DNA of 64,000 nucleotides from an uncultured Methanosarcinales archaeon. GTDB taxonomy: Archaea; Nanobdellota; Nanobdellia; Woesearchaeales; WJKR01. The notes below the pieces were generated by a model. That model saw only the letters and a list, made by a program, of their open reading frames with translations. It had not been told where the DNA came from and made no database searches. Location: NCBI GenBank assembly GCA_964556395.1, contig CAZKVR010000003.1:30715-94714 (forward strand), in the 5' to 3' direction. The translations under genes were made by a program, and so were the position numbers. Below, piece by piece: positions 565 to 56,870 of this stretch. Position 1 is the first letter of the stretch. Each line of letters begins with the position of its first letter.

Positions 565-790
565 TCACTTCATCACGTTGTACTCTCGGATGAGCAGCCA
601 TGTGAACAAGAGCATGATGACCACACCGACGCCCAAGAGGAAGAGGTTCTCCCACACCTTGACCGTGGTGAGCAGGCGGTACACGCCGAACACCATGATG
701 ATGACGCCTATCCAGAGGAACTTGTCCAATACTAGCTTGAGGATGTCGAACTCCTCTTCTCTCGTAAGATGCTTCTTCTGCTTGCGAGCC
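565..790 (-). CDS. Small two-TM membrane protein (75 aa, starting MARKQKKH)
   Basis: Start trimmed to the internal ATG at 790. Two hydrophobic helices. Lies 22 nt downstream of the pilin-like gene and 7 nt upstream of the lipoprotein, so likely one operon. Confidence 0.4.
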
Positions 791-811
791 ATGATACCAC
801 CAACCATTTTC

Positions 812-1375
812 TTAACCGACGACTTCCAGCCGGAACTGCTTTGAAGCGAGCTCCCCATCATCCCCACCTACCATCCGGACGGTGCAGATGTACGTACCTA
901 TAGGGACGTCATCATCAACGGAGACCAGGGCCTCGAAACCTTTCGCCTCGCCAGAGTTGACGGTCGCACTCATAGAGTTTAAGGTAATACCATTAACTTG
1001 ATTATCTGCACCACCGCCAACACAATTCAAATAATCCTCCCCATCATAATTACCCTGACTCCCGGTCGGGCCTACGGTCTGTTGAGAGTCCTTGTTGTAG
1101 AACCCTATCTCCAAAGGCACGGTCTTGCCTTTGGACGTCGTGACGACGCGGTCTATAGTCATGACATCCTCCGCGTTGGCAGGGTTCTCGAGACGCGTAT
1201 TATCCAACACGCTACCGAGGTTTTCAGTCCCCTTGCTGAACAACCCCCTGATGAACGTCAATCCCAACCCGAGGACGACCATCGCCATCACGAGGATGAC
1301 GATTGCGTTGATCGACAATTGCAAGCTACCGCTCTTACGCCTTCTTGAACGCTTGAAGATATCCATGATACACAC
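812..1375 (-). CDS. Putative pilin-like or secreted protein with a class III-like signal peptide
   Basis: Basic N-terminus (KRSRRRKSG), then a hydrophobic stretch SLQLSINAIVILVMAMVVLGLGL. A Gly/Thr/Asn-rich extracellular domain follows. Confidence 0.4.
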   Translation of the reverse strand: MCIMDIFKRSRRRKSGSLQLSINAIVILVMAMVVLGLGLTFIRGLFSKGTENLGSVLDNTRLENPANAEDVMTIDRVVTTSKGKTVPLEIGFYNKDSQQTVGPTGSQGNYDGEDYLNCVGGGADNQVNGITLNSMSATVNSGEAKGFEALVSVDDDVPIGTYICTVRMVGGDDGELASKQFRLEVVG

Positions 1376-1407
1376 CTCTGACCTTTCCGCACAACAATCA
1401 TATATAA

Positions 1408-1419
1408 AGGTTTCTCTCG
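1408..1419. promoter_or_regulatory. Near-palindromic TATA box (CATATATAAAGG) between divergent genes
   Basis: AT-rich box 33-57 nt from both divergent start codons, at 1375 (minus) and 1465 (plus). Confidence 0.45.
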
Positions 1420-1464
1420 GTCGAGGAGAAAGAGATAAAAAGAGCGCTCCCGCAAGGAAGATTC

Positions 1465-2598
1465 ATGACACGGCCAAGCCTCACGACCGATGAGCGGAGA
1501 GCGGACACGTTCTTCGACCTCGTCGCGGACAGGCTCACCTTCTCTGACATCAACCCTACGAACGAGAAGGGCGCCAAGCAACGCTTCCTCAAGCACGGCA
1601 AGGAACCCCAGTTCCGGTACGGCCAGCCGGCCGAGGAGCTCAGCCAGTTCAAGGCAGGCCTCGAACTCCTCCCAAAGCTCGAGGACGGCGTCGCAGCAAG
1701 CATCCTCAACGCCAAGCAACAAGAACTCATCAAGAAGATCCGATTGTTGGAACGCCTCGGCACGCCGGGGTTCGCCACCACCAGCGCGCAGCTCTACCCA
1801 TTGCCGGACAAGAAGCTGCTCGAACAAGCCCGCACACTCCTACAACTGCCGCCGTCAGGCAAGGCGAAACGCATCACCCGCATAGAAGGCATCAAGCTGA
1901 TACGGAAAGTGCTCGACCACCTAGGCCTCAAGTACGCGATCAGGAGCAGCCCCATACTCACGTCAGCCCGGATGCAAGCAAGCAACAGGCTGCTCGAGCT
2001 CAAGAAACGCGAACGGTTCTCGGAAGACTACCTGAAACGGCTCGTCGTCCACGAGATCGGCACACACGCTCTCCGAGGCGAGAACGGAGCCCTACAACCA
2101 TTGAGAGTGTTCAAGAATGGGTTCCCAGGATACCTCGACGCGGAGGAAGGACTGGCAGCCTACAACGAGTACCAGGCAGGACTCCTCACCAACTCAATCC
2201 TACGCAACTACGCCGGACGCGTCATCGCCATCGACACCGCCTCCAAAGCAGGCTTCAAGGAGACCTACAAGGAGTTGAGGAAGCACTTCACGCAGAAGAC
2301 GGCGTGGAAACTCGCGGTCAGGGCGAAGAGAGGACTGAAAGACACGAGCAAGCCAGGCGCGTACAGCAAGGACGCCGTCTACCTCAGAGGACTCATCACC
2401 ATACTAAAGTTCGCGGAAGGCCACGACCCGAACGAGCTCTACCACGGCAAGGTAGCGCCGAAAGACCTAGCAGCCATGAAAGGCATCCCAAGCCTGAAGA
2501 AACCAAGATTCCTCCTCCAACGCGTGCTCGACAAGGACCTCATCACACCCACTGAACGACGGGTTGAAGAAGAGACCATACGACAACTCACGAAGTGA
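1465..2598 (+). CDS. DUF1704 / QEGLA-motif zinc metalloprotease (MATCAP-like carboxypeptidase family)
   Basis: HExxH-like HEIGTHAL motif and EEGLAAYNEYQAGL (QEGLA-type) motif. Length 377 aa is typical for TIGR02421/DUF1704. Confidence 0.6.
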   Translation: MTRPSLTTDERRADTFFDLVADRLTFSDINPTNEKGAKQRFLKHGKEPQFRYGQPAEELSQFKAGLELLPKLEDGVAASILNAKQQELIKKIRLLERLGTPGFATTSAQLYPLPDKKLLEQARTLLQLPPSGKAKRITRIEGIKLIRKVLDHLGLKYAIRSSPILTSARMQASNRLLELKKRERFSEDYLKRLVVHEIGTHALRGENGALQPLRVFKNGFPGYLDAEEGLAAYNEYQAGLLTNSILRNYAGRVIAIDTASKAGFKETYKELRKHFTQKTAWKLAVRAKRGLKDTSKPGAYSKDAVYLRGLITILKFAEGHDPNELYHGKVAPKDLAAMKGIPSLKKPRFLLQRVLDKDLITPTERRVEEETIRQLTK

Positions 2599-2604
2599 CG
2601 ATCC

Positions 2605-3198
2605 ATGGAAGCGTACCGCCAGACGACAGAGTACACCGGAGCGGCCGCGACGCTCCTCACCCTGCTCCACCACTACGACCCAGAGATACCGCTGAACCGG
2701 GAGGAAGAGTTCCGCATCTGGCACCGGACCGCAAACCTGCCGGTGAGGGCGCCGTCCATCTACGGCCTCGCGCTCGTGGCGCAGGAGCACGGCCTCAGAC
2801 CACGCATCGTGCTGGAAGAGAAGGAGTACGACTACCCGGACTACCGGTTCAAAGGATACACGAAGAAAGAAGTGGACGAGGCGAAGTTCTCATCAAAACT
2901 CTACGCCAAGCGGGCGGAGGCGGCAGGCATCCCGGTCGAACAACGCGAAGTCACGCTGAAAGAAGTCCTCAAGACCCTGAATGCAAGCAAGAAGCTCCTG
3001 CTACGCGTCAACGCCGGCGTGTTCCGCAAGACAGGCAGCACGAGCAAGTACGTCGCAGTCCACCAAAAACAAGGAGTCATCAAGGCCGTCGACCCGAGGT
3101 ACGGAGAGCTCGACGTCAAGGAAGAGGAACTGGAAGAAGCCATGGCGACGCTGCAGACGAAGAAGAAACGCGACGTCCGGATGATAGTCCTGGACTAG
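2605..3198 (+). CDS. Papain-fold peptidase C39-like domain protein (DUF3335-like), catalytic Cys apparently replaced by Thr
   Basis: YRQTTEYTGAAATLLTLLHHY matches the C39 Q-x5-C-G-x-A-x-L pattern with T at the Cys position. A downstream H....G.I.AVDP resembles the C39 His/Asp region. 197 aa. Starts 6 nt after the DUF1704 stop. Confidence 0.45.
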   Translation: MEAYRQTTEYTGAAATLLTLLHHYDPEIPLNREEEFRIWHRTANLPVRAPSIYGLALVAQEHGLRPRIVLEEKEYDYPDYRFKGYTKKEVDEAKFSSKLYAKRAEAAGIPVEQREVTLKEVLKTLNASKKLLLRVNAGVFRKTGSTSKYVAVHQKQGVIKAVDPRYGELDVKEEELEEAMATLQTKKKRDVRMIVLD

Positions 3199-4439
3199 AA
3201 CGAACGGGCGGCAGCCCTATAATAGTCCTCGAGCAGCAAGACGTCGAGGTCCTCATAGTTCTTGAGGAGGTACAACGACCCGCCGCCGACCTCGACGAGC
3301 CGCTTGGACAACGCCTCGCCCTCCTCATCCAAGGAGAGGCCGACGACGCTCACCGTGACGCCCTGTTGGGCGGCCTCGCTCGCCGCCTCGAGCACCCTGG
3401 CGGTGGGGTCCTGGCCGACGGTCTGCAAGCCGTCCGTCAAAAGGAGTACGTGCTTGACGCCCTGTTCTTCCTCCAACAACCATGCGGCGTGCCTCAACGT
3501 GGCGGCGAGGTCCGTCTCCTTGCTCGCACGGGCCCGCGTGATGAGCCTCGCAAGAGAGAGGAAGTCGCTCGTCGGAGACAACGAAGCCTCAATCTCACGT
3601 CCGAACACGACGAGGCCGACGCGGTCACGCTTCCGCGTCGCCTTGAACGACAACGCGACGCCGGCCCGCTTGGCGGCGGCGAGCTTGTCACCCTTCATGC
3701 TACCGCTCGCATCCACGGCGTAGACGATGGACGCGCGCTGCCGGGACTCGCGGTCGAGGGCGACGAAGTCATCCTTGCTCAACGAATCGTGGCCGCGGCG
3801 GAGGGACTTCTTGATAGAGGCCTTCAGGGCGAGGTCTCGGAAGCGGTGGTGCTGTCGGAACGGCGCGTAGGAGGACGCCTCGCCGTCATCGGCCCGGGCG
3901 CGGCTGTCGCGCTCGCCCAAGGCACCGTGGCGGTCGAGCTTGTCAAGCTCGTCGGCGGTGAGGGCGAGGGCGGCGACGGTGAACCCTTCCTCGGTCAGGG
4001 CCTCGTCATCGTCGAGCAAGCCTTCGTCCTTGAGGGACTTGATGGACTGCTGGACGCGGTCGCGGAGCTCGCGCTGGAACTCAGGGATGCGGACGTTCTT
4101 CTCCACGTAGGACGGGTCGTAACCTGTCAATTCGCGTATGAAACGCTCGCCGTAGAGCTCTTTCGCCTGGCGGTACTGGTTGACGAGCTGGTCGGCGAGC
4201 ATGTCGGGCGAGAAGGAACGGAGGCCGTGGTTGACGCCTTCCGAGAGCATCATGCCTTCGGGTATGAAGTCCTTGTCGTTCTCCAGGACTGAGCGCATGA
4301 GCTTGTCGAGCTCCTCGCTGTGCGCGAGGGAGCCGTCGGCCTCCTCGGCCTCGCCGACGTCCCCTATGCGGGAGGACTCCTGGTCCGGCGCGTCATCCAG
4401 CCCCTCATCGTAGGAGGGGGAGGTGCTACCGGCCACCAC
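3195..4439 (-). CDS. von Willebrand factor A (VWA) domain protein with acidic N-terminal region (ChlD/CobT-like partner of an AAA+ ATPase)
   Basis: MIDAS motif DASGSM. VWA-like beta-alpha pattern in the C-terminal half. Acidic N-terminus. Confidence 0.7.
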   Translation of the reverse strand: MVAGSTSPSYDEGLDDAPDQESSRIGDVGEAEEADGSLAHSEELDKLMRSVLENDKDFIPEGMMLSEGVNHGLRSFSPDMLADQLVNQYRQAKELYGERFIRELTGYDPSYVEKNVRIPEFQRELRDRVQQSIKSLKDEGLLDDDEALTEEGFTVAALALTADELDKLDRHGALGERDSRARADDGEASSYAPFRQHHRFRDLALKASIKKSLRRGHDSLSKDDFVALDRESRQRASIVYAVDASGSMKGDKLAAAKRAGVALSFKATRKRDRVGLVVFGREIEASLSPTSDFLSLARLITRARASKETDLAATLRHAAWLLEEEQGVKHVLLLTDGLQTVGQDPTARVLEAASEAAQQGVTVSVVGLSLDEEGEALSKRLVEVGGGSLYLLKNYEDLDVLLLEDYYRAAARSF

Positions 4440-5454
4440 CCGTTTCCTTGTCGACCCGCTCCATGAGCTTGTCGTAGGAGGCGCGGACGTACGCCTCGGG
4501 GGTTGAGAGGAATTGCGCGCTCGGCTTGAGCCGTATGCGGTGCGCGATGACGGACTCGACCGCCTTGCCGAGGTCCTCGAACGACACTTCTTCGCGGCCG
4601 GCGAGGTAGGCGTTGGCCTGGGCGCGCTCGTACAGTCCGAGGGTTGCGCGGACGCTAGGGTGCTTCTCGAGCTTGTCGTCCTCGCGGAGCTCTCGCACGT
4701 AGCGTACGAGCGCTTCCTTGACTGGTTGCGGGACGGTGACGAGCCGGTGCCCTTTGGTGTCGACGATGCGCTCCTCGACCTGCTGGCTTTCAGGGTAGCG
4801 CATGCGGGCGATGTCGAACCGGTCGAGGAAGACGTCTGACAATGGTTCGGTGCTGTTGTCGTCAGGGTTCATCGTCCCTATGAATATGAAGTTGGCGTCG
4901 AAGTCGACGTCGTAGCTGCCGATGGTGAGCTTGCCCTCCTCGAGAACTTGGAGGAGGGCGTTCTGCAGTTTTTCAGAACAACGGTTCACCTCGTCGAAGA
5001 AGAGGATGCCATTATTGGCTTTGAAGATCTTGCCGGGCGTGAACGCCTCGAGGGATAGGGGGCCGTACTTCATCGCCTTGAGCGGGTCGATGTCGCCGAG
5101 GAGGTCCTCTGCGGTGAGGTCGGGGGATCCTTGCACCCTGATGAAGCGCTCCTCGCCTTTGACTTTTTTTGTGGGTGCTTCCTCGCCTTTCCGGGCGCGT
5201 GCGATGCAGTCCGGACAGAGCGGGTGGCCTGGCTTGCAGTGGAAGCCGCAATCCACCACTTCCATGGATGGGAGCAGTTTCGAGAGGTTCTTGACGAGCG
5301 TGGTCTTGCCGATGCCGGGCGGGCCTATGAGTATGAGGTGTCGGTCCATGAGGATGGCGCTCTTCAGCTCGTCCTTGACGTGGCCCTGTCCGATGATGTC
5401 CTGGAACTCCGCGTCGCGGAGGTTCTTCCCGAGGAGTGGCTGGTGCGGGGTCAT
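4426..5454 (-). CDS. AAA+ ATPase, MoxR / Mg-chelatase ChlI-like, with a Cys-rich insert
   Basis: Walker A GPPGIGKTT, Walker B ILFFDEVN, sensor FIFIGTMNP. Insert CGFHCKPGHPLCPDC. Overlaps the VWA gene by 14 nt (operon). TATA-like TTTTTTAAACC sits 25-36 nt upstream. Confidence 0.75.
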   Translation of the reverse strand: MTPHQPLLGKNLRDAEFQDIIGQGHVKDELKSAILMDRHLILIGPPGIGKTTLVKNLSKLLPSMEVVDCGFHCKPGHPLCPDCIARARKGEEAPTKKVKGEERFIRVQGSPDLTAEDLLGDIDPLKAMKYGPLSLEAFTPGKIFKANNGILFFDEVNRCSEKLQNALLQVLEEGKLTIGSYDVDFDANFIFIGTMNPDDNSTEPLSDVFLDRFDIARMRYPESQQVEERIVDTKGHRLVTVPQPVKEALVRYVRELREDDKLEKHPSVRATLGLYERAQANAYLAGREEVSFEDLGKAVESVIAHRIRLKPSAQFLSTPEAYVRASYDKLMERVDKETGGGR

Positions 5455-6571: not shown

Positions 6572-6717
6572 GAAAGGATGTTTATAAAACCTTGGTTCTG
6601 GAACCGCATTGCTGAGACCTCGCAAGTTATCGCTCGGAAGCGAAACATTTAAATAATGCATCTGGAAGAAGAAGGTTTCGAGAAACTCATCAGTTCGAGT
6701 GCGAGGTGAATACCACA

Positions 6718-7281
6718 ATGGCAAAGAGAGGTCAAGCAGCATTAGAATTCCTGACGACGTATGGCTGGGCATTCCTCATCATCCTCGTGATGATTGGAGC
6801 GTTCGCGTACTTCGACATACTGAACCCACAACGATTGTTCCCGGGCAAGTGCCAGTTCCAGGTGGGCATCACGTGCGACCAGTACAAGATAGCCAACCCC
6901 GGCGGTGTCGGAGCAGGTGATGACCCGTACGTCCAGTTCGAGTTGAAGAACCAGAAAGGCAGCAGCATCTATGTAAGTAACCTCGAGTATTATAATCCCA
7001 ACTCCGGCGAATATGAGGCGTGCAGCCAAGAAGATGGAGGGTCTGGTATAGGTACATACGGAGATATAGATCAGGTGTTGGATGAAACCACCGGTACTGA
7101 CATCTCAGCTGAGCGACGGTTCGACATGACGTGCGTCTTCGATGACGAACATGTCGACGCCGTCGTCGGTGACAAGGCCACCGTCAAGGTACGGTTCTGG
7201 TACAACGAAGGCGCCACCGCTGACGATGAGTACGAGAAGCCAATGGAAGGCAGCATCGTATCCGACGTGACGGATAGTTAA
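6718..7281 (+). CDS. Archaeal type IV pilin with class III signal peptide
   Basis: MAKRGQAALEFLTTYGWAFLIILVMIGAFAY is a canonical [KR]GQ-A/S-x-EFL class III signal. Cys-containing secreted domain. Oligo-T terminator follows. Confidence 0.75.
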   Translation: MAKRGQAALEFLTTYGWAFLIILVMIGAFAYFDILNPQRLFPGKCQFQVGITCDQYKIANPGGVGAGDDPYVQFELKNQKGSSIYVSNLEYYNPNSGEYEACSQEDGGSGIGTYGDIDQVLDETTGTDISAERRFDMTCVFDDEHVDAVVGDKATVKVRFWYNEGATADDEYEKPMEGSIVSDVTDS

Positions 7282-7340: not shown

Positions 7341-7805
7341 ATGAATCCGAAAGCCCAGCAGTCCTTGGAGTTCATGGTCACCTACGGGTGGATGATCCTC
7401 ATGGCAGGCGCTGTAGCAGGCTCCCTCGCCTACTTCGGCGTGTTTGACTCCGACCAGAACCTCCCGTCCCAGTGCAACCTCGGCTTCGACTTCTCCTGCG
7501 AACAGTTCGTCCTGTTCGACAACGGCACGGTGCGCGTGGAAGCGGGGAACAAGGCCGGCGAACCCTTGGAAGTGGAGTCGTTCAGGTGCACCTACCCTGA
7601 CGAGAGCGTGGACTCCACCACGTATGGCGGCGCCGAGTGGCTGCCGGGCGACACGTTCAACCTCGCCTGCAACCCCTCAGGGGGAATCCTCACAAATGGT
7701 GAGCGTGAGAAAGTGAAGGTGAAGCTGGAGTACCGCAAGAAAAGCGGAGGCTTCACCAAGCACGTCGAAGGAGACGTCGCCGCCATCGTGGCGGAGAGCT
7801 CTTAA
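7341..7805 (+). CDS. Archaeal type IV pilin with class III signal peptide (tandem second pilin)
   Basis: MNPKAQQSLEFMVTYGWMILMAGAVAGSLAY. Similar architecture to the upstream pilin. Confidence 0.75.
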   Translation: MNPKAQQSLEFMVTYGWMILMAGAVAGSLAYFGVFDSDQNLPSQCNLGFDFSCEQFVLFDNGTVRVEAGNKAGEPLEVESFRCTYPDESVDSTTYGGAEWLPGDTFNLACNPSGGILTNGEREKVKVKLEYRKKSGGFTKHVEGDVAAIVAESS

Positions 7806-11099: not shown

Positions 11100-11573
11100 A
11101 TGGCTCAGGGGAGGAGGATTTCTCGGGACACGCCGCTGGCAGAGCTCACGCTCCGCAAGTACGAGAAGCCGTCCGTCGATGGGCGAGAGCTCGTGCGCAA
11201 GACGTGCCTCAGCCTCGGGCTGCTGCAGCCTGGCGACTCCAGGGATGTCGTGGTGGACGTGTTCCAGACCTTGCTGAAAAGCCATGAGGCGTTGACGAGC
11301 GTCGAGGTGGAACGCAAGGTCATCAAGGCACGCGAAGAAGCGGGGCTGGAACTACTCGGCATCGCACCGTCCAACATCCGGCGACAACTCCTGCGTCTGA
11401 GGGACCTGTTCCTCGTGGAGAAGAAAGGCAACTACTACCGGATAGCAGAAGACGCCTCGCTGACGGAACTCTTCCAGGAGAAGCTCGAATCCTACTTGTT
11501 GGACGCGACGGTGAAGCGTGTCAAGGAGTACCTGAAAGCCGTGGACAAGGCGTACCCCCGAAGCGAGGAGTAA
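11100..11573 (+). CDS. Hypothetical protein, probable winged-helix DNA-binding fold
   Basis: Start trimmed to ATG 11100. RRQLLRLRDLFLVEKKGNYYRIAED resembles a recognition helix plus wing. Confidence 0.3.
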   Translation: MAQGRRISRDTPLAELTLRKYEKPSVDGRELVRKTCLSLGLLQPGDSRDVVVDVFQTLLKSHEALTSVEVERKVIKAREEAGLELLGIAPSNIRRQLLRLRDLFLVEKKGNYYRIAEDASLTELFQEKLESYLLDATVKRVKEYLKAVDKAYPRSEE

Positions 11574-15201: not shown

Positions 15202-15888
15202 ATGGCCAAGCTCACCGAGAAGGAATGCGCGGACGGCTCGCACACTTTCCACAACGAGGAGGTCGGCGAGTCGTACCACACGCCGCTCGGGGCGGCGATG
15301 GAAGCCCGGGAGAAATACGTCCCGCCGTGCGAGGTCAAGAAACGCTGCAAGGGTGGACCGATCAACGTCCTCGACGTCTGCTACGGGCTCGGGTACAACA
15401 CCGCGGCGCTGATAGAGGCCGCGAAGAAAAATTCTCCTGATTGCGACCTCACCGTCTACGGTCTGGAGCTCGACAAGGATATTGTGGAGAGGAGTCTCGA
15501 CCTGCCATTCCCGTTCGCGCACGAGGACCTCTTCAAGAGACTCAACAGGAACTATGATGAAAGGAAGCGAGCATTCACGATGAAGGGAGGCCGCACCACC
15601 ATCACTGTGCTGATAGGAGACGCGAAGGAACGCCTCAACGAGGTGCCGTTCCTGGCGGACGTCGTGCTGTTCGACCCGTTCTCGCCGCGCAAGGCGCCGG
15701 AGATGTGGACGGAAGAATTCTTCAAGGATATTTATGAGAAGTGCGCTGAAGGCGCGGTGCTCGTCACCTACTCGTGCGCCCGCGCCGCACGGGAGGTGAT
15801 GGCGGCTGCCGGCTTCAAGGTCGAGGACGGTCCGGTCGTGGGACGGCGTGGGCCGGCCACCGTCGGACGAGTATCAAAAGATACTTAA
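15202..15888 (+). CDS. SAM-dependent methyltransferase, MnmC N-terminal-like (DUF752/Methyltransf_30)
   Basis: Start trimmed to ATG 15202 (MAKLTEKE). LFDPFSPRKAPEMWTEEFF matches the DGFSPxKNPElW signature of the MnmC-like methyltransferase domain. Confidence 0.55.
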   Translation: MAKLTEKECADGSHTFHNEEVGESYHTPLGAAMEAREKYVPPCEVKKRCKGGPINVLDVCYGLGYNTAALIEAAKKNSPDCDLTVYGLELDKDIVERSLDLPFPFAHEDLFKRLNRNYDERKRAFTMKGGRTTITVLIGDAKERLNEVPFLADVVLFDPFSPRKAPEMWTEEFFKDIYEKCAEGAVLVTYSCARAAREVMAAAGFKVEDGPVVGRRGPATVGRVSKDT

Positions 15889-15914
15889 AGGGAGTCCGTT
15901 TCGTCACTCTAGCC

Positions 15915-15988
15915 GTCCCCGTGGTGTAGCCTGGATAGCATTGTGGCTTGCGGAGCCATAGACCCGGGTTCGAATCCCGGCGGGGACA
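15915..15988 (+). tRNA. tRNA-Arg (anticodon GCG)
   Basis: Manual fold: acceptor stem GTCCCCG/CGGGGAC, D arm, anticodon stem GTGGC/GCCAT, loop TTGCGGA (U33, GCG, purine 37), T arm CCGGG-TTCGAAT-CCCGG, discriminator A. No encoded CCA. Confidence 0.85.
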
Positions 15989-16145
15989 TCCGAAAAAACA
16001 CAATCTTTAAATAGAACCTGCGGACTATATATCGATTGTTGGGGTAATACAACATATAGTAAGCGAAAATATTGATATGAAATAAATTTTACAATATCTA
16101 AACGCTTATATGCCCAACACACCACAACAGACAAGGGGAGACGTG

Positions 16146-16418
16146 ATGGCCAGGAACAAGAAAATCTTCAACACATTCTTCAGGGAGAAGCCAGCGATGA
16201 TGCTTATCACCCTGCTCAACAAGAACAACGACATCTACGCCTCATCACTCGCCAAGACGGTCGACTGCACGTACAGCCACGTCGTCAAGATACTGCAAGA
16301 GATGCACAAGGCAGACCTCATAGCCTTCGAGAAGCAAGGACGCCTCAAGGTCCTCACACTCACCAAGAAAGGGCAAGGAATCGCAGAGAAAATCGACGCA
16401 ATCAGGAACGCGCTCTAA
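16146..16418 (+). CDS. Small winged-helix transcriptional regulator (MarR/PadR/ArsR-like)
   Basis: Start trimmed to MARNKKIF. HTH SLAKTVDCTYSHVVKILQEM followed by a wing. TATA CTTATATG sits about 33 nt upstream. Confidence 0.55.
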   Translation: MARNKKIFNTFFREKPAMMLITLLNKNNDIYASSLAKTVDCTYSHVVKILQEMHKADLIAFEKQGRLKVLTLTKKGQGIAEKIDAIRNAL

Positions 16419-16422
16419 AAAC

Positions 16423-16599
16423 TCATTCTTCGAACTCCTCATCAGAAAGGTCGAACTCACGGCAGCCGAAGCACGGCGTAGCGAGGAAGCCATCGACCAT
16501 CTTCTTAGGATCGAAACAACAACCCTTGATATGGAACTCGCAACCGCTGCACTCAGGAGCGGACTGCTCCTGAGGTCCGAACAGAGAACGCCGAGCCAT
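16423..16599 (-). CDS. 58-aa zinc-ribbon protein with acidic C-terminal tail (MARRSLFGPQEQSAPECSGCEFHIKGCCFDPKKMVDGFLATPCFGCREFDLSDEEFEE). LysW-like candidate carrier or RimK substrate. Missing from ORF track (<60 aa).
   Basis: My own translation of the minus strand. CxxC ... CC ... CxxC. The C-terminus ...DLSDEEFEE ends in Glu. TATA CTTTTTATACC at 16621-16631 is 22-31 nt upstream. Located 40 nt downstream of the RimK-like stop. Confidence 0.55.
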   Translation of the reverse strand: MARRSLFGPQEQSAPECSGCEFHIKGCCFDPKKMVDGFLATPCFGCREFDLSDEEFEE

Positions 16600-16620
16600 G
16601 AAAAAGCAAACATACGAAGA

Positions 16621-16631
16621 GGTATAAAAAG
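16621..16631 (-). promoter_or_regulatory. TATA box (CTTTTTATACC on the minus strand) for the small zinc-ribbon gene
   Basis: Positioned for a leaderless transcript starting near 16599. Confidence 0.45.
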
Positions 16632-16638
16632 GTTGCGG

Positions 16639-17736
16639 TCACATGAACCGCTTGACCGACAACGAACCCTTGGAAGCGACGAGCTTGACAGAGTCAGAAT
16701 CATTGAACCCAGTCAACTTGGACACCAACTCCGGAAGGAGGATGCGAGCACCCCGGAAATCAAGCTGGGTGATGAGCTCCTGCTCCCGACCACCATCGCC
16801 ATTCTCGCTGTTGAGATCAGCCATGATCTCCTTCGTCTGACGATCCTTACGCGAATCGGACAACTCCCTAGTCTTATCATACAAGTACTGCGCGATCAAG
16901 TCAGCCACGTCGACCTTCGTCGCCTCCGTGATGCCCTGCAAGCCAGGGCTGATGTTGATCTCGATGATAAGAGGACCGGTAGGACCCTCAAGGATGTCGA
17001 CGCCGCAGATGTCAGCGCCGAGCGCCTTGGCGGCGTCCACCGCAATCTTCTCAGTATACGCGTCAGGGACGAACGGCTCGCCAGCGCCGCCAGCGTGGAT
17101 GTTGGCGCGCTTGTCGACACCCTTACCCTTGCGCTTCATAGCCGCAGCAACCTTGTCACCGACCACGATGAGCCGGATGTCAGTAGACTCCGTCTCGACG
17201 TACTCCTGGATGAGGAACGGCTGGTTCAAGGCATCCAACGCATCCAAGATAGTGGAAGCGCTGGCAAACGAGTCGGCGAACATGACACCCTTGCCCTGGG
17301 TGCCCTGCGGGAACTTCATGATGATAGGATAGTTCATCTTGGAAAGGACATCCTTCGCCGCCTGGATGGTCGCGGAAAGATAGGTCCGCGGCATGGGGAG
17401 GTTGCGCTGCTGCAGCACCAGCTGAGTGAGCAGCTTGTCGTGCGCGATGGTGTACGCGCTCGGAGCCAACGGCAGGAAGACCGCCTCGTTCGTCGAGAAC
17501 AAGTCGGCCAGCGCCCGGAGCAACTGGGCGTACCGGAAGGAACCCTTGATGAGCAAGCAATCATAATGCGGGACCGGCTTGCCCTCATAGAGCACCTCAG
17601 CCTTCTTGCCCGAAAAGTTGATGTCAAGGAACTTGACGTCGAGGTGGTCCACCTCGTCGAAATAATTCCTCATGGCATCGAGCGTCCACTGGGAACTCTT
17701 GCTCTTGCCTGAGATAAGCGCTGCTTTCATGATCAT
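16639..17736 (-). CDS. RimK-like ATP-grasp alpha-L-glutamate ligase family protein with a C-terminal extension of about 80 aa
   Basis: ATP-grasp motifs: KFPQGTQGKGV, IQEYVE, RANIHAGG, IIEINISPG. 365 aa, versus about 290-300 for RimK, LysX or CofF. Confidence 0.75.
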   Translation of the reverse strand: MIMKAALISGKSKSSQWTLDAMRNYFDEVDHLDVKFLDINFSGKKAEVLYEGKPVPHYDCLLIKGSFRYAQLLRALADLFSTNEAVFLPLAPSAYTIAHDKLLTQLVLQQRNLPMPRTYLSATIQAAKDVLSKMNYPIIMKFPQGTQGKGVMFADSFASASTILDALDALNQPFLIQEYVETESTDIRLIVVGDKVAAAMKRKGKGVDKRANIHAGGAGEPFVPDAYTEKIAVDAAKALGADICGVDILEGPTGPLIIEINISPGLQGITEATKVDVADLIAQYLYDKTRELSDSRKDRQTKEIMADLNSENGDGGREQELITQLDFRGARILLPELVSKLTGFNDSDSVKLVASKGSLSVKRFM

Positions 17737-17737
17737 A

Positions 17738-18094
17738 TCACCTGTTGGGATCGATGAGGAACCCTCTCTTGAGGACGTTCTGGCCGACGAGAACCTTGTA
17801 CTTCATGTGCTCACGATCGGCGAGGGTGAACTTCTCAGTCACCTCCTTGCCACGGATGCAGATGGTCGCCTCGATGACCGGCCGGAGCTTGCTGCCGTGA
17901 GCGCTCTTCACCAACCTTGATTCGACGACGGGGCCGAGCTTGAGCTGGCTCGCCAGCTTGTAATCAATGCTGCTCTTCGTAGCACCGGTATCGATGCGCG
18001 CCTTGAGCGCCTCGCTCACGCCGCCATGACGGAGCTCGACGTCCTCGACCATACCAATCAGTATCCTCTCCCTACCTTCGTCGTCCTTGATCAT
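17738..18094 (-). CDS. Retropepsin-like aspartic protease (PF05618 'putative ATP-dependent zinc protease' family), RimK-associated
   Basis: Active-site ARIDTGATKS (D-T-G-A). 118 aa. Its stop lies 1 nt before the RimK-like start. Its start overlaps the lysS stop (ATGA). Confidence 0.65.
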   Translation of the reverse strand: MIKDDEGRERILIGMVEDVELRHGGVSEALKARIDTGATKSSIDYKLASQLKLGPVVESRLVKSAHGSKLRPVIEATICIRGKEVTEKFTLADREHMKYKVLVGQNVLKRGFLIDPNR

Positions 18095-19584
18095 AATCCC
18101 TCATCCTTCTGCGGCCTCATGGTCGGGAACAATATCACATCACGGATGGAGTCGTTCCCGGTGAATAACATGACGAAACGGTCGATACCCAACCCGACGC
18201 CGCTCGTCGGCGGCATACCATGCTCCAGGGACGCGAGGAAATCCTCATCCATAGGATGGGCCTCCTCGTCGCCGCCGCGTCCGCGCTCGGCCTGCTCTTC
18301 CAGCAGCCTTCGCTGCACGACGGGGTCATTGAGCTCAGAATAGGCGTTGCCCATCTCCCAACCGTTGATGTAGACCTCGAACTGCTCGACATAGCGATCA
18401 TCACCATCTCGCCGGGCTTTGGCGAGCGGGGTGTTCTCGACAGGGTAGTCCCTGACGAACGTTGGTTGTATGAGCTTGTCCTCGCACTTCCCCTCAAAGA
18501 TAGCGACGACGAGCATGCCCCAGCTGCTGGCGTCGTACTCGATACCTTCCTTGTCGCAGTAGTCGAGGAGGTCTTCCCGCGACATGCTGTCGATGTCGAG
18601 GCCAGTGTGCTCGTTGACAACCGCGGCGACCGTCATCCGCCTCCAAGGGGGTTTGAGATCTATCTCCTTGCCGTCGAACGTAATCTTCGTCGTGCCGAGG
18701 ACGTCCTGGGCGGCCTTGCTCACCGCATCCTCCACGAGGCGCATGCCATCGTTGTAGTCACCGTAGGCCTGATACCATTCCACTTGGGTGAACTCAGGGT
18801 TGTGGGTGCGGTCGATGCCTTCGTTGCGGAAATCCTTGACGAACTCGTAGACGCGCTCGAAGCCACCCACCAAGAGCCGTTTGAGGTAGAGCTCGTTGCT
18901 GATCCGGAGGTAGAGCCTCATGTCGAGGGCGTTGTGATGGGTGACGAACGGCCGGGCGTTGGCGCCGCCGTACACGGGCTGGAGGGTCGGCGTCTCGACC
19001 TCGAGGAAGCCGTTGCCGTCCAGCGTCTGTCGGATGCTCTTGATGATCTTCGAACGCTTGATGAACGTCTCACGCACCTCGGGATTCATGATGAGGTCGA
19101 GGTATCGCTGGCGGTAGCGGAGCTCGGTGTCCTGGAGGCCGTGGTACTTCTCAGGGAGGGGCCGGAGGGACTTGGCGAGGAGCTCGAGGCTCTTGGCGCG
19201 GACGGTGACCTCGCCTGTCTTGGTGGCGAATACCGTGCCGTCGGCACCGATGATGTCGCCGATGTCGAGCTTCTTGAAACGCTTGTACTGCTCGTCTCCG
19301 AGCTCGTCCTTGCGGACGTAGAGCTGGATCCTTCCGGTGGCGTCCTGGATGGTGCAGAATGAGGCCTTGCCCATCACGCGCAACGCCATGATGCGGCCGG
19401 CCACGACGACTTCCTGCTCGGTCGTCGCTTCAGGCTCGAGGCCCTTATGGGCTTCCTGGACCTGGGCGGCGTCGTGGGTCTTGCCGTACCGGTATGGGTA
19501 CGGGTTGACACCATTTTCGAGGAGCGCCTCGCGCTTCCTCATACGTTCCTGTACGAGCCGGTGCTCGTTCTGTTCCTCCACCAT
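18091..19584 (-). CDS. lysS: Lysyl-tRNA synthetase, class II
   Basis: N-terminal OB anticodon-binding domain. Class II motifs FRNEG, GLGIDR. 497 aa. Confidence 0.95.
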   Translation of the reverse strand: MVEEQNEHRLVQERMRKREALLENGVNPYPYRYGKTHDAAQVQEAHKGLEPEATTEQEVVVAGRIMALRVMGKASFCTIQDATGRIQLYVRKDELGDEQYKRFKKLDIGDIIGADGTVFATKTGEVTVRAKSLELLAKSLRPLPEKYHGLQDTELRYRQRYLDLIMNPEVRETFIKRSKIIKSIRQTLDGNGFLEVETPTLQPVYGGANARPFVTHHNALDMRLYLRISNELYLKRLLVGGFERVYEFVKDFRNEGIDRTHNPEFTQVEWYQAYGDYNDGMRLVEDAVSKAAQDVLGTTKITFDGKEIDLKPPWRRMTVAAVVNEHTGLDIDSMSREDLLDYCDKEGIEYDASSWGMLVVAIFEGKCEDKLIQPTFVRDYPVENTPLAKARRDGDDRYVEQFEVYINGWEMGNAYSELNDPVVQRRLLEEQAERGRGGDEEAHPMDEDFLASLEHGMPPTSGVGLGIDRFVMLFTGNDSIRDVILFPTMRPQKDEGL

Positions 19585-19602: not shown

Positions 19603-19612
19603 TGCTGCTTAT
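19603..19612 (-). promoter_or_regulatory. TATA box (TATTTATAAG) for lysS
   Basis: 20-28 nt upstream of ATG 19584. Confidence 0.45.
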
Positions 19613-19631
19613 AAATACTTATCGGTCGTCT

Positions 19632-19979
19632 TCAGAGAAGGGAGAGGTCTCCGACGACGGTGTCGACGTCCTGTTCAGAGGCTGGGCCGATGGCGAGGGC
19701 GGTCCTGGTGCCTGGGGCGACGACTGTCTTGCCCGCGTCGGTGATGATGCTGGCGACGAGGCCTTTCCGCTTGGCATCCTGCTGTATGCTGAGGAGCGAT
19801 TGCTCGTCAGGCACTTTGAGGACGACCTTCTTCATGCCGGCGGCGTGCCAGTCGCTCACGATGTCCTTGGAGCTGCGAAGCGTGGCTTCCACGCTGGCGT
19901 GGGCCGCTTGGGCGGCGGCTTTCCCTTTCGGGAGCTTGAGGTCCGCCCTGATGACGATGGCTTGCTTGAGGTCTGCCAT
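19632..19979 (-). CDS. pth2: Peptidyl-tRNA hydrolase, PTH2 (archaeal/eukaryotic type)
   Basis: IVIRADLKLPKGKAAAQAAHAS signature. 115 aa. TATA GTTATAAAGC at 19999-20008. Confidence 0.9.
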   Translation of the reverse strand: MADLKQAIVIRADLKLPKGKAAAQAAHASVEATLRSSKDIVSDWHAAGMKKVVLKVPDEQSLLSIQQDAKRKGLVASIITDAGKTVVAPGTRTALAIGPASEQDVDTVVGDLSLL

Positions 19980-20002: not shown

Positions 20003-20995
20003 TTATAACCGTTGCCCTTTGTCTGCGGCCGATGGCGTGTCGAAGAGCGTTGAAAGCTCGTCCACCCTGTAGAAGAGCGACTTCGCCTTCTCTACTGCCT
20101 TGGCGACCTTGATGGTAGACTCGTGGCGTTCCTGATATGCGTCGAAGGCCTTGGTGAATGAGTCCCGCTCCAGGGCGAGGGTGTGGAATGACGGGACGTC
20201 CTTGCGGTAGTAGGCCGACATGAGGGCGTCGTAGTGCTTCGACAGTTTCTTCAGGAGTGCGGTGAGGTTCTGGGTCTGGTCGTCATCGAGTGGGAGGAGG
20301 AGCCTGGCGAGGCGTTTGAGCTCGTCGCCAATCTTCTCCATTGTCTGGACGAGGTCCCATACGTGGAGGAGGTCGCCGTTGGTCTGATAGGGGTCTCTCG
20401 CTCGGGGGTGGTCGAGGAGGTATTTGACTGCGCGCATGACGAGGTATGCGAGGCGGTTGACGTCCCAGTCGCGTTCGGTGATGTTGATGGGGATGTCGAT
20501 GCCCGAGAACTTGTTCGGGTCCTCGACGCGCGAGATGACGTCCATGAAGGATGACTTGAGGATGGCGTCTATCTTGCGGACGAGGTTTCCCACCTGGATG
20601 TCCCTCATGTTGAGGTAGCACCGGGCTTGGATGCGTTGGGCCGACTCCTCGATGATCTCGAGCGAGACGAGCTGGTGCATGAATTCCCGGACATCCTTGT
20701 TCTTCTTCGGGATTTCACGGCCGGTGAGGAGGACGACGTCGGCGTTGTTGAGGTATGCGCTGATGACATTGCGCTTGATGGTGTCGAGCGGTACGTTGTC
20801 GACGGAGAAACGGTAGGTGCGCTCTTCTTGGCGGCGTTCGGTCGCCCTGCCCGGGGAGAGGATTATGCCGTTCTCAGAGGTTTCGAGCCTGAGGCTGTCT
20901 CCCGGTTCCAGATTGTTCCTGGAGGCCCATGATTTCGGGAGCGAGACGATGAGCGAGTTCTTTCCGAACCTGATTATCTTGCGGTATTCTGCCAT
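20003..20995 (-). CDS. AbrB/SpoVT-like N-terminal domain fused to PhoU-like domain (phosphate uptake regulator-like)
   Basis: N-terminal swapped-hairpin region KIIRFGKNSLIVSLPKSW. Helical PhoU-like remainder. Paralogue of 56007..56870. Confidence 0.55.
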   Translation of the reverse strand: MAEYRKIIRFGKNSLIVSLPKSWASRNNLEPGDSLRLETSENGIILSPGRATERRQEERTYRFSVDNVPLDTIKRNVISAYLNNADVVLLTGREIPKKNKDVREFMHQLVSLEIIEESAQRIQARCYLNMRDIQVGNLVRKIDAILKSSFMDVISRVEDPNKFSGIDIPINITERDWDVNRLAYLVMRAVKYLLDHPRARDPYQTNGDLLHVWDLVQTMEKIGDELKRLARLLLPLDDDQTQNLTALLKKLSKHYDALMSAYYRKDVPSFHTLALERDSFTKAFDAYQERHESTIKVAKAVEKAKSLFYRVDELSTLFDTPSAADKGQRL

Positions 20996-56006: not shown

Positions 56007-56870
56007 ATGGAAATACGAAAACTCCAAATAGTAGGCAACCGCAGCTACTCCATATCTCTCCCCAAAGGATGGGTACTACAAAACAACCTGAAACCCAAAG
56101 ACAACATCTACATCTCAGAAGAAGCCAACAACACCCTATGCATCACCGCAAGCGAAGGCACACAAGAAAACCACAACTACACTTTCAAACTAGACAACAT
56201 CAGCCACGTCAAGGAATTCGTAAGATTCTGTTATGAGAAGAACATCAAGAACATCAGGTTCTTCTGGGACACCCACCAACCCAAGAAGATCAACGCAGTG
56301 AAAGACATCCTAAGATACCTCGACGGATACGACCTCGTCCAAGAAGGCGAAGGGTTCCTCGAGATAGCATTCCTGTTCAACGAGTTCAACATCACTCTGA
56401 ACAAACTCCTCAACAGAACCATATACCTCCTCACAACACAGTTCGAATCCATCATGAACGGGAGCGAAGAAGACATCCGAGAGAACGAAATATCCATCGA
56501 CAAAATCTACCTCCTCGCCAAACGCATAATCTTCGCCAGCATCCGCAACCAAAAGCTTCGGACGGAGAACAAAATCACCTACGACGAGGAGATATTCAGC
56601 TACAAAAACATCTTCAAGAAACTAGAGAACATCGCAGACGTCCTGTACGAGATGCGCGACAAGAAATTCAATGAGAAAGACATGGCAAAACTCAAGCAAG
56701 TCGTCGAACACCTCAAAACCACCATCGTGAAGAGAAAGATACCAGAGAGCGAAAGCATCTTCTCAAAAGACCCCCTAACAGACTTCTTTTTCCACCGCAT
56801 CAACAGCCTGAAGGAAGACATCGAACAAGAAATCCGCACGATGGACTTCATCCACACATACTTCACTTGA
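56007..56870 (+). CDS. AbrB/SpoVT-like N-terminal domain + PhoU-like domain protein, low-GC paralogue of 20003..20995
   Basis: MEIRKLQIVGNRSYSISLPKGW aligns to MAEYRKIIRFGKNSLIVSLPKSW. Codon usage is AT-rich (AAA, AAC, ATA), unlike the rest of the window. Confidence 0.55.
   Translation: MEIRKLQIVGNRSYSISLPKGWVLQNNLKPKDNIYISEEANNTLCITASEGTQENHNYTFKLDNISHVKEFVRFCYEKNIKNIRFFWDTHQPKKINAVKDILRYLDGYDLVQEGEGFLEIAFLFNEFNITLNKLLNRTIYLLTTQFESIMNGSEEDIRENEISIDKIYLLAKRIIFASIRNQKLRTENKITYDEEIFSYKNIFKKLENIADVLYEMRDKKFNEKDMAKLKQVVEHLKTTIVKRKIPESESIFSKDPLTDFFFHRINSLKEDIEQEIRTMDFIHTYFT

Follow-up and report, generated by a model that had tools for sequence, protein, structure and literature searches.

Why would an archaeon keep the genes of a RimK-like ligase and a retropepsin-like protease together, next to the gene of a lysyl-tRNA synthetase, and on what might such a pair act? 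The question is raised by a locus in a stretch of 64,000 nucleotides of contig CAZKVR010000003.1 (hereafter the window, with positions counted from its first letter), which derives from a tiny, symbiotic-type archaeon of the Woesearchaeota. On its minus strand lie lysS, encoding a class II lysyl-tRNA synthetase (LysRS) of 497 residues (18091-19584), a gene for a retropepsin-like (RimB/RloA-like) aspartic peptidase of 118 residues (17738-18094), a gene for a RimK-family ligase of 365 residues (16639-17736) and a small open reading frame (ORF) for a Cys-rich protein of 58 residues that ends in DLSDEEFEE (16423-16599). All four ORFs were found at the coordinates given in a preliminary description of the sequence, which had read them as one tightly coupled module of four genes. 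The junctions between lysS, protease and ligase are as described there; the conserved unit is smaller, comprising the protease and the ligase, two genes and not four. We favor, with modest confidence, the reading that this unit is a DPANN version of the RimB-RimK poly-α-glutamate write/erase pair, with an AbrB-type domain on the ligase and ties to translation genes. The bacterial pair is already known; what is new is the variant with its AbrB-type ligase domain and its neighborhood of LysRS and the peptidyl-tRNA hydrolase Pth2.

Reading the junctions, we found that the TGA of lysS shares the sequence ATGA with the ATG of the protease, and that the TGA of the protease is followed after 1 nt by an ATG of the ligase. 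In most homologues the ligase starts at the second ATG, at 17730 (MKAA...), which is also the NCBI call (363 aa) and is preceded by a Shine-Dalgarno-like GGTGA motif. The gap between the two genes is thus 1 or 7 nt by the start chosen, and the ATG at 17730 is likely the true start.

To examine how general the pairing is, we compared 19 loci from a scan of species-representative genomes and 80 from a metagenome scan (80 of 419 confirmed matches). Of the 88 loci whose upstream DNA extended over 360 nt or more, 86 had the protease gene directly upstream of the ligase gene, the other two being a 154-nt gap and a coordinate artefact, and in about half of the cases inspected the two genes overlapped by 4 nt. 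Furthermore, three representative proteins are natural fusions, one of retropepsin, RimK and C-terminal domain (P0123) and two of retropepsin and RimK (P0126, P0142). They parallel the bacterial RimBK hybrids, which are proteolytically active (PMC11957791). The known association of RimK-like ATP-grasp enzymes with retropepsin-like proteases, which the preliminary description had invoked, holds here both as adjacency and as fusion. The pair is near-universal and housekeeping-like in this reduced-genome clade, with hundreds of metagenomic copies. In the literature searched, we found no description of RimK in Woesearchaeota or DPANN, nor of a RimK-AbrB architecture.

The protease scored 56.7 bits with PF05618, above the gathering threshold (GA) of 27, and its catalytic D35-T-G-A motif (17981..17992, minus strand) is kept as D[TS]GA in 16 of 16 aligned orthologues; family score and motif bear out its assignment as a RimB-like retropepsin. 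The nearest solved structures were 9g59 and 9g58, annotated as 'putative ATP-dependent zinc protease' (PF05618-type), and the best NCBIfam match was RloA3, at 56 bits under a cutoff of 210. HMMER alignments to 9g58/9g59 place R33, R71 and R94 of the archaeal protein at K46, R114 and R137 of RloA, residues that coordinate poly-Glu in RloA/RimB (PMC11957051). Among the orthologues R71 and R94 do not vary, whereas position 33 is R or K. Compared with the bacterial enzymes, the flap region lacks ~30 residues. Like the RloABC system of P. aeruginosa (PMC11957051), the archaeal locus pairs a retropepsin-like peptidase that has a positively charged channel with an ATP-grasp protein. RloA proteins are secreted, carrying signal peptides as well as a disulfide, whereas a signal peptide is absent from the archaeal protease, and the transglutaminase-like membrane protein RloB, encoded in the rlo operon, has no counterpart at the archaeal locus.

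The ligase belongs to the RimK family, scoring 176.6 bits with TIGR00768 (cutoff 143.4) and 144.2 bits with PF08443 (cutoff 21), and all 32 aligned members matched this family. Models of narrower function were scored below their cutoffs: RimK sensu stricto, i.e. bS6--L-glutamate ligase (NF007764), 146.7 bits against 331; LysX, 136.5 against 275.6; MptN, 125.9 against 350; and CofF, 64.7 against 300. The order RimK > LysX > MptN > CofF was the same in all 32 members, of which the best E-value with NF007764 was 3.5e-54 and none reached its cutoff. Of solved structures, the RimK proteins of E. coli and Pseudomonas were nearest (131-144 bits), and LysX of T. thermophilus (1uc8/1uc9) and the 3vpb/3vpd chains gave 66-74 bits. 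E. coli RimK (5zct) aligned with 144 bits over residues 32-284, with the ATP-grasp motifs K..GTQG.GV, QEY, D.R, R.N.H.GG, GVD and E.N.SPGL kept; these positions are invariant across the family alignment, whose mean column identity is 62%. The ATP-grasp core (residues 1-276; 16909..17736, minus strand), delimited by PF08443, TIGR00768, the match to 5zct and AlphaFold2 (AF2), was modelled with a predicted local distance difference test (pLDDT) score of ~90. Since RimK structures and models outscore those of LysX, MptN and CofF, the ligase does not group with the cofactor glutamate ligases on model scores, and the preliminary placement of it as RimK-like, outside MptN/CofF and LysX, is upheld. 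MptN and CofF are likewise archaeal RimK-family α-L-glutamate ligases; unlike the present enzyme, they have neither a protease partner nor a C-terminal extension.

This extension, of ~80 residues, had been noted in the preliminary description, and it is genuine, conserved across the clade and outside the region matched by canonical RimK and LysX; its AbrB-type identity had not been recognized. Structures of E. coli and Pseudomonas RimK, LysX and ArgX, as well as all NCBIfam profiles, aligned to residues ~20-290 only. Full-length homologues among the 120 best covered 98-100% of the query and were 352-385 aa long. Their alignment shows a charged linker of variable length and sequence, followed by a conserved module, LDFRGxRILLPExVTK..F.E.D.V.I.A.KG...IKKF, in which D326, R328 and P335 are invariant. 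The full-length AF2 monomer (pLDDT 87) consists of the core (1-276), a helix (277-310), a tether whose pLDDT falls below 50 at residues 312-316 and a half-barrel (326-363), and the module modelled by itself (pLDDT 90) is a hairpin-helix-hairpin. A profile of the module searched against 177,635 PDB sequences had AbrB N-domains, in register, as its top three matches (E ~0.5), and hhalign of the module with a small AbrB/SpoVT/MazE/PhoU-AbrB alignment gave 84% probability. With the model as a query, nearly all of the first 26 Foldseek matches were MazE, AbrB, SpoVT, VapB, Sso7c4 or C68, the top five having probabilities of 0.94-0.97 and template modelling (TM) scores of about 0.6; the Cdc48 N-domain was also among the structural matches. 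As modelled, the extension is thus a long helix (277-310) and a flexible, disordered linker (311-319; together 16780..16908), followed by a SpoVT/AbrB-type swapped-hairpin half-barrel (320-365; 16642..16779, all on the minus strand) with the signature LDFRGxRILLP. An exhaustive search of representatives found ~25 proteins of 353-376 aa that matched residues 3-363 with 240-408 bits, and all further representatives, of about 270-320 aa, scored at most 190 bits and matched residues ~3-290 only. Because score and length break so sharply, we regard the AbrB-type appendage as an invention of one clade, confined to DPANN (Woesearchaeota/Nanoarchaeota); the named members that carry it are from Woesearchaeota, Nanoarchaeota and archaeon GW2011_AR6.

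What might this domain do? Like AbrB-N, MazE, VapB, SpoVT-N and Sso7c4, it is predicted to form a β-β-α-β-β half-barrel of about 45 aa, and its G-R-x-x-x-P loop is in register with G14-R15...P19 of AbrB. In those regulators and antitoxins the domain is an N-terminal DNA-binding head, whereas here it is the C-terminal appendage of an enzyme; moreover, its loop is one residue longer and the Pfam model misses it. By its modelled fold, the half-barrel would have to pair with a second copy, and it may hold the oligomer together and/or anchor the ligase to a polyanion, be it nucleic acid, the ribosome or an acidic tail. A polyanion-binding role is suggested by the fusions P0126 and P0142, in which poly-Lys tails stand in place of the AbrB domain, and by the K-rich tails in which several AbrB-bearing ligases also end. 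Another RimK-family protein, P0168 (397 aa), has a different C-terminal add-on, a TrkA_C domain, and C-terminal accessory domains may be a recurring theme of RimK-like ligases. Two paralogues encoded in the window itself, at 20003-20995 (minus strand) and 56007-56870 (plus strand), have an AbrB/MazE domain (PF04014) at the N-terminus, and AbrB-type domains therefore recur in this genome. The former also has a weak PhoU-like region and is encoded two genes upstream of lysS.

The kinship with DNA-binding domains raises the alternative that the ligase acts as a 'trigger enzyme', its paired AbrB-type domains binding the promoter DNA of lysS, protease and ligase, with the state of glutamate and ATP feeding back on transcription. 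The shared fold with AbrB, SpoVT, MazE and VapB, the flexible tether, the K-rich tails that replace or follow the domain in some members and the upstream position kept by a LysRS of either class would all agree with such a role. However, reading the sequence upstream of lysS in the window, without a systematic search, we saw no operator-like repeat there; half of the lineages have no LysRS upstream; and AbrB-like and cradle-loop barrels also bind peptides, the matches to the Cdc48 N-domain being an example. We consider feedback of this kind rather unlikely. It is compatible with a poly-Glu write/erase pair and not exclusive of it.

The fourth gene of the presumed module behaves differently. 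The small ORF begins 39 nt past the ligase stop, behind T-runs, and ~27 nt before its ATG lies a TATA-like element, TTTTTATAC, which is also found in locus L001; in L002 a weaker TATA-like sequence, CTTATTAA, precedes the ORF. It thus appears to have its own promoter. The core KGCCFDPxKxxDG[FY]LAxPCFGC shows synonymous third-position changes between the window, L001 and L002, so the ORF is a real coding gene. Among the ~100 loci it was detectable in these three only. The L001 version ends in CKDVVKG and lacks the acidic tail, and in that of L002 the first CxxC is missing. Searched against 5.8 billion proteins, the small protein had no relatives but itself (annotated hypothetical), and Pfam and NCBIfam gave no match. 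With a range of three closely related genomes, a tail that is absent from one of them and an apparent promoter of its own, the acidic-tail gene cannot be kept as a member of the module, and it is not a conserved substrate, carrier or ligase partner.

These properties decide two explanations in which the small protein is central. In the first, it would be an amino-group carrier of the LysW/LysX type, whose C-terminal Glu the ligase would load with an amino acid, and the proximity of lysS would reflect lysine metabolism. There is some likeness to LysX/ArgX-LysW: the ligase is of the same ATP-grasp superfamily branch and reaches about half of the LysX cutoff, a small Cys-rich ORF with CxxC...CxxC and a terminal E, superficially LysW-like, adjoins it in this genome, and the LysRS neighborhood is conserved. 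In L007 a gene for an amino-acid kinase (3107-3997; PF00696, its motifs ArgB/LysZ-like by eye) is situated ~0.6 kb upstream of the protease and recalls LysW pathways. However, no model marks the small ORF as LysW-like, and its absence from most genomes that bear the pair argues against a carrier as the general function; the ligase is far under the LysX cutoff and nearer to RimK structures than to LysX/ArgX; the window has no LysY, LysZ, LysJ or LysK genes, and the locus thus lacks the downstream pathway enzymes; and a poly-Glu-type retropepsin, the partner found here, has no role in carrier pathways. Non-conservation of the ORF and the lack of family matches led us to reject the carrier, which we consider very improbable. 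In the second explanation, the adjacent ATP-grasp, protease and short Cys-rich ORF would be a cluster for a peptide made by the ribosome and modified after translation (RiPP) of the graspetide kind, in which the ligase modifies and the protease processes the small peptide as precursor. Here graspetide maturase models gave about 17-24 bits against cutoffs of 350-425 (TIGR04187, 23.6 against 350; MvdC, 17 against 425), nearly all loci with the pair lack the peptide, the gene of the peptide has an apparent promoter of its own, and near-universal, housekeeping-like occurrence in a reduced-genome clade is not what such a cluster predicts. Model scores and the lack of a conserved precursor dispose of this idea, which is the least credible of those considered.

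Is the link to translation more durable? The window lysS encodes a class II enzyme by a wide margin (NF001756, 704 bits, cutoff 468; TIGR00499, 610 bits, cutoff 427.6). Upstream of it lies pth2 (19632..19979, minus strand; PF01981, 130.5 bits), a recurrent neighbor, which in 16 related loci either preceded LysRS or adjoined the protease gene on its upstream side and which also precedes the triple fusion P0123 in L104. A TATA element had been proposed at 19603-19612; a TATA-like sequence does stand upstream of lysS, namely TTTATAA at 19609-19615 (minus strand), overlapping that span and ~28 nt before the lysS ATG. By archaeal promoter geometry it is the probable promoter of lysS-protease-ligase. 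We then tallied the genes upstream of the protease at 66 informative loci, the window being counted besides. Class II lysS was on the same strand within 250 nt at 13 loci (plus the window) and class I LysRS at 8; LysRS was farther off in the flank at 7 and, as class I, on the opposite strand at one (L001); pth2 was directly adjacent, without LysRS, at 5; and 32 had other genes. The class I candidates had TIGR00467 as best match in 10 of 10 tested, nine above the cutoff of 147.55 bits and a truncated fragment in L066 at 117.6 bits. After dereplication at 90% ligase identity, LysRS was in the upstream flank of 27 of 58 informative lineages and adjacent on the same strand in 21 (13 class II, 8 class I). 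LysRS was by far the commonest upstream family, the runner-up being a 101-aa protein of a single clade.

In a neighbor-joining tree of the ligases, loci linked to class I and class II are interspersed. Within the clade of the window, the window and L002 have class II, and in L001, whose ligase is 77% identical, that slot is taken by class I: its LysRS gene (580-2232, minus strand; PF01921, 401 bits) lies in opposite orientation between pth2 (238-567) and the protease (2281-2631). L001 is a clean in-place, non-orthologous displacement of class II lysS by class I LysRS. The class I genes themselves form two subfamilies that share about 30% identity. No locus examined has both classes. The gene order is not peculiar to one genome: linkage of the ligase to an aminoacyl-tRNA synthetase gene recurs across about 100 related loci, even with an unrelated class I LysRS, and is stronger than the preliminary description had supposed. 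This pattern is not producible by chance, and two scenarios remain for it, selection that keeps a LysRS gene in the slot, or an ancestral tandem of both classes followed by differential loss. Replacement of class II by class I in one slot suggests that selection favors expression of LysRS at this locus.

The competing view is that the synteny is inherited without functional meaning and that the pair makes and turns over free poly-α-glutamate, as a store or osmolyte, unrelated to translation. RimK makes free poly-α-Glu and is stimulated by RimB (PMC11957791). Pairwise identities of LysRS and ligase correlate positively and moderately (Spearman 0.31 and 0.55), as co-inheritance expects; other genes are upstream in 27 of 58 lineages; and neither LysRS nor pth2 neighbors the two nearest non-extended relatives, L102 (an Altiarchaeota ligase) and L103 (archaeon), a comparison of two loci only. 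On the other hand, one slot holds three unrelated or very divergent LysRS lineages (class II and the two class I subfamilies), the swap from class II to class I among relatives as close as the window, L002 and L001 is not predicted by pure inertia, and the co-occurrence of pth2 points in the same direction. We therefore regard inherited synteny as an unlikely, albeit not negligible, account. A tRNA-Lys gene was also sought near the module; the sole tRNA of the 64-kb window is tRNA-Arg(GCG) (15915-15988, plus strand), and the ORFs across 15815-16134 are spurious translations of it.

Together, pairing, family and neighborhood are best accommodated by a poly-α-glutamate write/erase pair. By analogy with RimK, the ligase would add α-linked L-glutamates to a carboxylate acceptor, either the C-terminus of a protein or a growing free poly-α-glutamate chain, and the peptidase, presumably dimeric, would trim the poly-Glu back, both proteins being expressed from, or beside, the LysRS gene near pth2. 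We infer glutamate as the substrate and cleavage of poly-Glu from the relation to Pseudomonas RimB-RimK (rimABK) and the bacterial RimBK hybrids (PMC11957791), in which a PF05618 peptidase gene is likewise immediately upstream of a RimK-family ligase and fusions occur. The archaeal pair shares the DTGA motif and basic residues at the poly-Glu-coordinating positions, and its ligase core is nearest to solved RimK. It differs from RimB-RimK in having no RimA and an archaeal host without bS6 (RpsF), in the shorter flap of the peptidase, in the helix, linker and AbrB-type domain of the ligase, in its LysRS and Pth2 neighbors, and in scores far below the NCBIfam equivalog cutoffs.

Several points weigh against this reading. 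The ligase falls short of the RimK equivalog cutoff, and the protease scored 39.9 bits with the RimB equivalog NF052261 against a cutoff of 200. Assignment of the AbrB-type domain is based on weak sequence statistics (the PDB E-value of about 0.5) and a predicted fold: no Pfam family matched the 80-residue extension even at E≤10, PF04014 being silent, and of the four DNA-contact positions of AbrB, only two are basic in the extension. The link to LysRS is not obligatory, since unrelated genes occupy the upstream position in about half of the lineages, and it could stem from ancestral synteny rather than function. Furthermore, bS6 is established as a bacteria-specific ribosomal protein that archaea lack, and we identified no candidate acceptor in our analysis of the window and related loci. 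The suggestion that co-expression with the translation apparatus serves a purpose 'as for S6 modification' can therefore not be taken literally. Since the pair sits with a LysRS gene near pth2, the likeliest target is some part of the translation apparatus, bS6 excepted; the product could alternatively be free poly-α-Glu. LysRS itself was considered as a target and set aside, since its C-termini lack acidic character and vary from locus to locus. Proteins of the window that end in Glu were considered as well; one of them, a 157-aa protein without family assignment that is encoded just downstream of the IleRS gene (11100-11573, plus strand), is a possible acceptor and ends in ...PRSEE, resembling the C-terminus of E. 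coli S6.

A bolder version of the write/erase reading, which we put forward tentatively as a speculation, is a dedicated, translation-linked poly-glutamylation in Woesearchaeota/Nanoarchaeota, directed at a non-bS6 target, with the ligase tethered to rRNA, tRNA or DNA via its AbrB-type domain and the system linked functionally to the supply of lysyl-tRNA or to the rescue of stalled translation. Such a link would account for the retention of Pth2 and of LysRS, whichever its class, next to the pair. If true, a ribosomal protein or translation factor might be tagged or tuned with C-terminal Glu in these Lys-rich, AT-rich genomes. RimK-RimB is understood so far only as a bacterial system acting on bS6; the high conservation of the pair in an archaeal clade that has reduced genomes and lacks bS6 implies that another acceptor must exist, and the AbrB-type appendage and the LysRS/Pth2 neighborhood are handles for finding it.

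Other features were observed around these loci. L104 has, upstream of its triple fusion, another RimK-domain paralogue, which is short (3713-4525, 270 aa) and overlaps pth2 (4522-4860). A gene with an NFACT_N domain (RqcH/NEMF-like, of ribosome quality control) lies ~0.5 kb downstream of the ligase in L010 (6644-7771) and L011 (5091-6218). Loci L004, L010, L011, L013, L014, L016 and L019 are from GTDB representatives named 'uncultured Methanosarcinales archaeon', which carry the Woesearchaeota-type pair at 48-58% identity; these names look like mislabels from automated binning. Convergent with the module in the window is a gene for a small winged-helix protein (16110-16418, plus strand; weak match to PF25212, HVO_A0114-like), which is the convergent downstream neighbor in 16 loci and, at 74-86% identity across loci, is more conserved than the ligase. 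Finally, two adjacent genes of the window (6706-7281 and 7341-7805, plus strand) encode the N-terminal motifs QAALEFLTTYGWAF and SLEFMVTYGWM, typical of archaeal type IV pilin-like proteins with class III signal peptides, and L008, L015 and L016 have similar genes downstream of the ligase.

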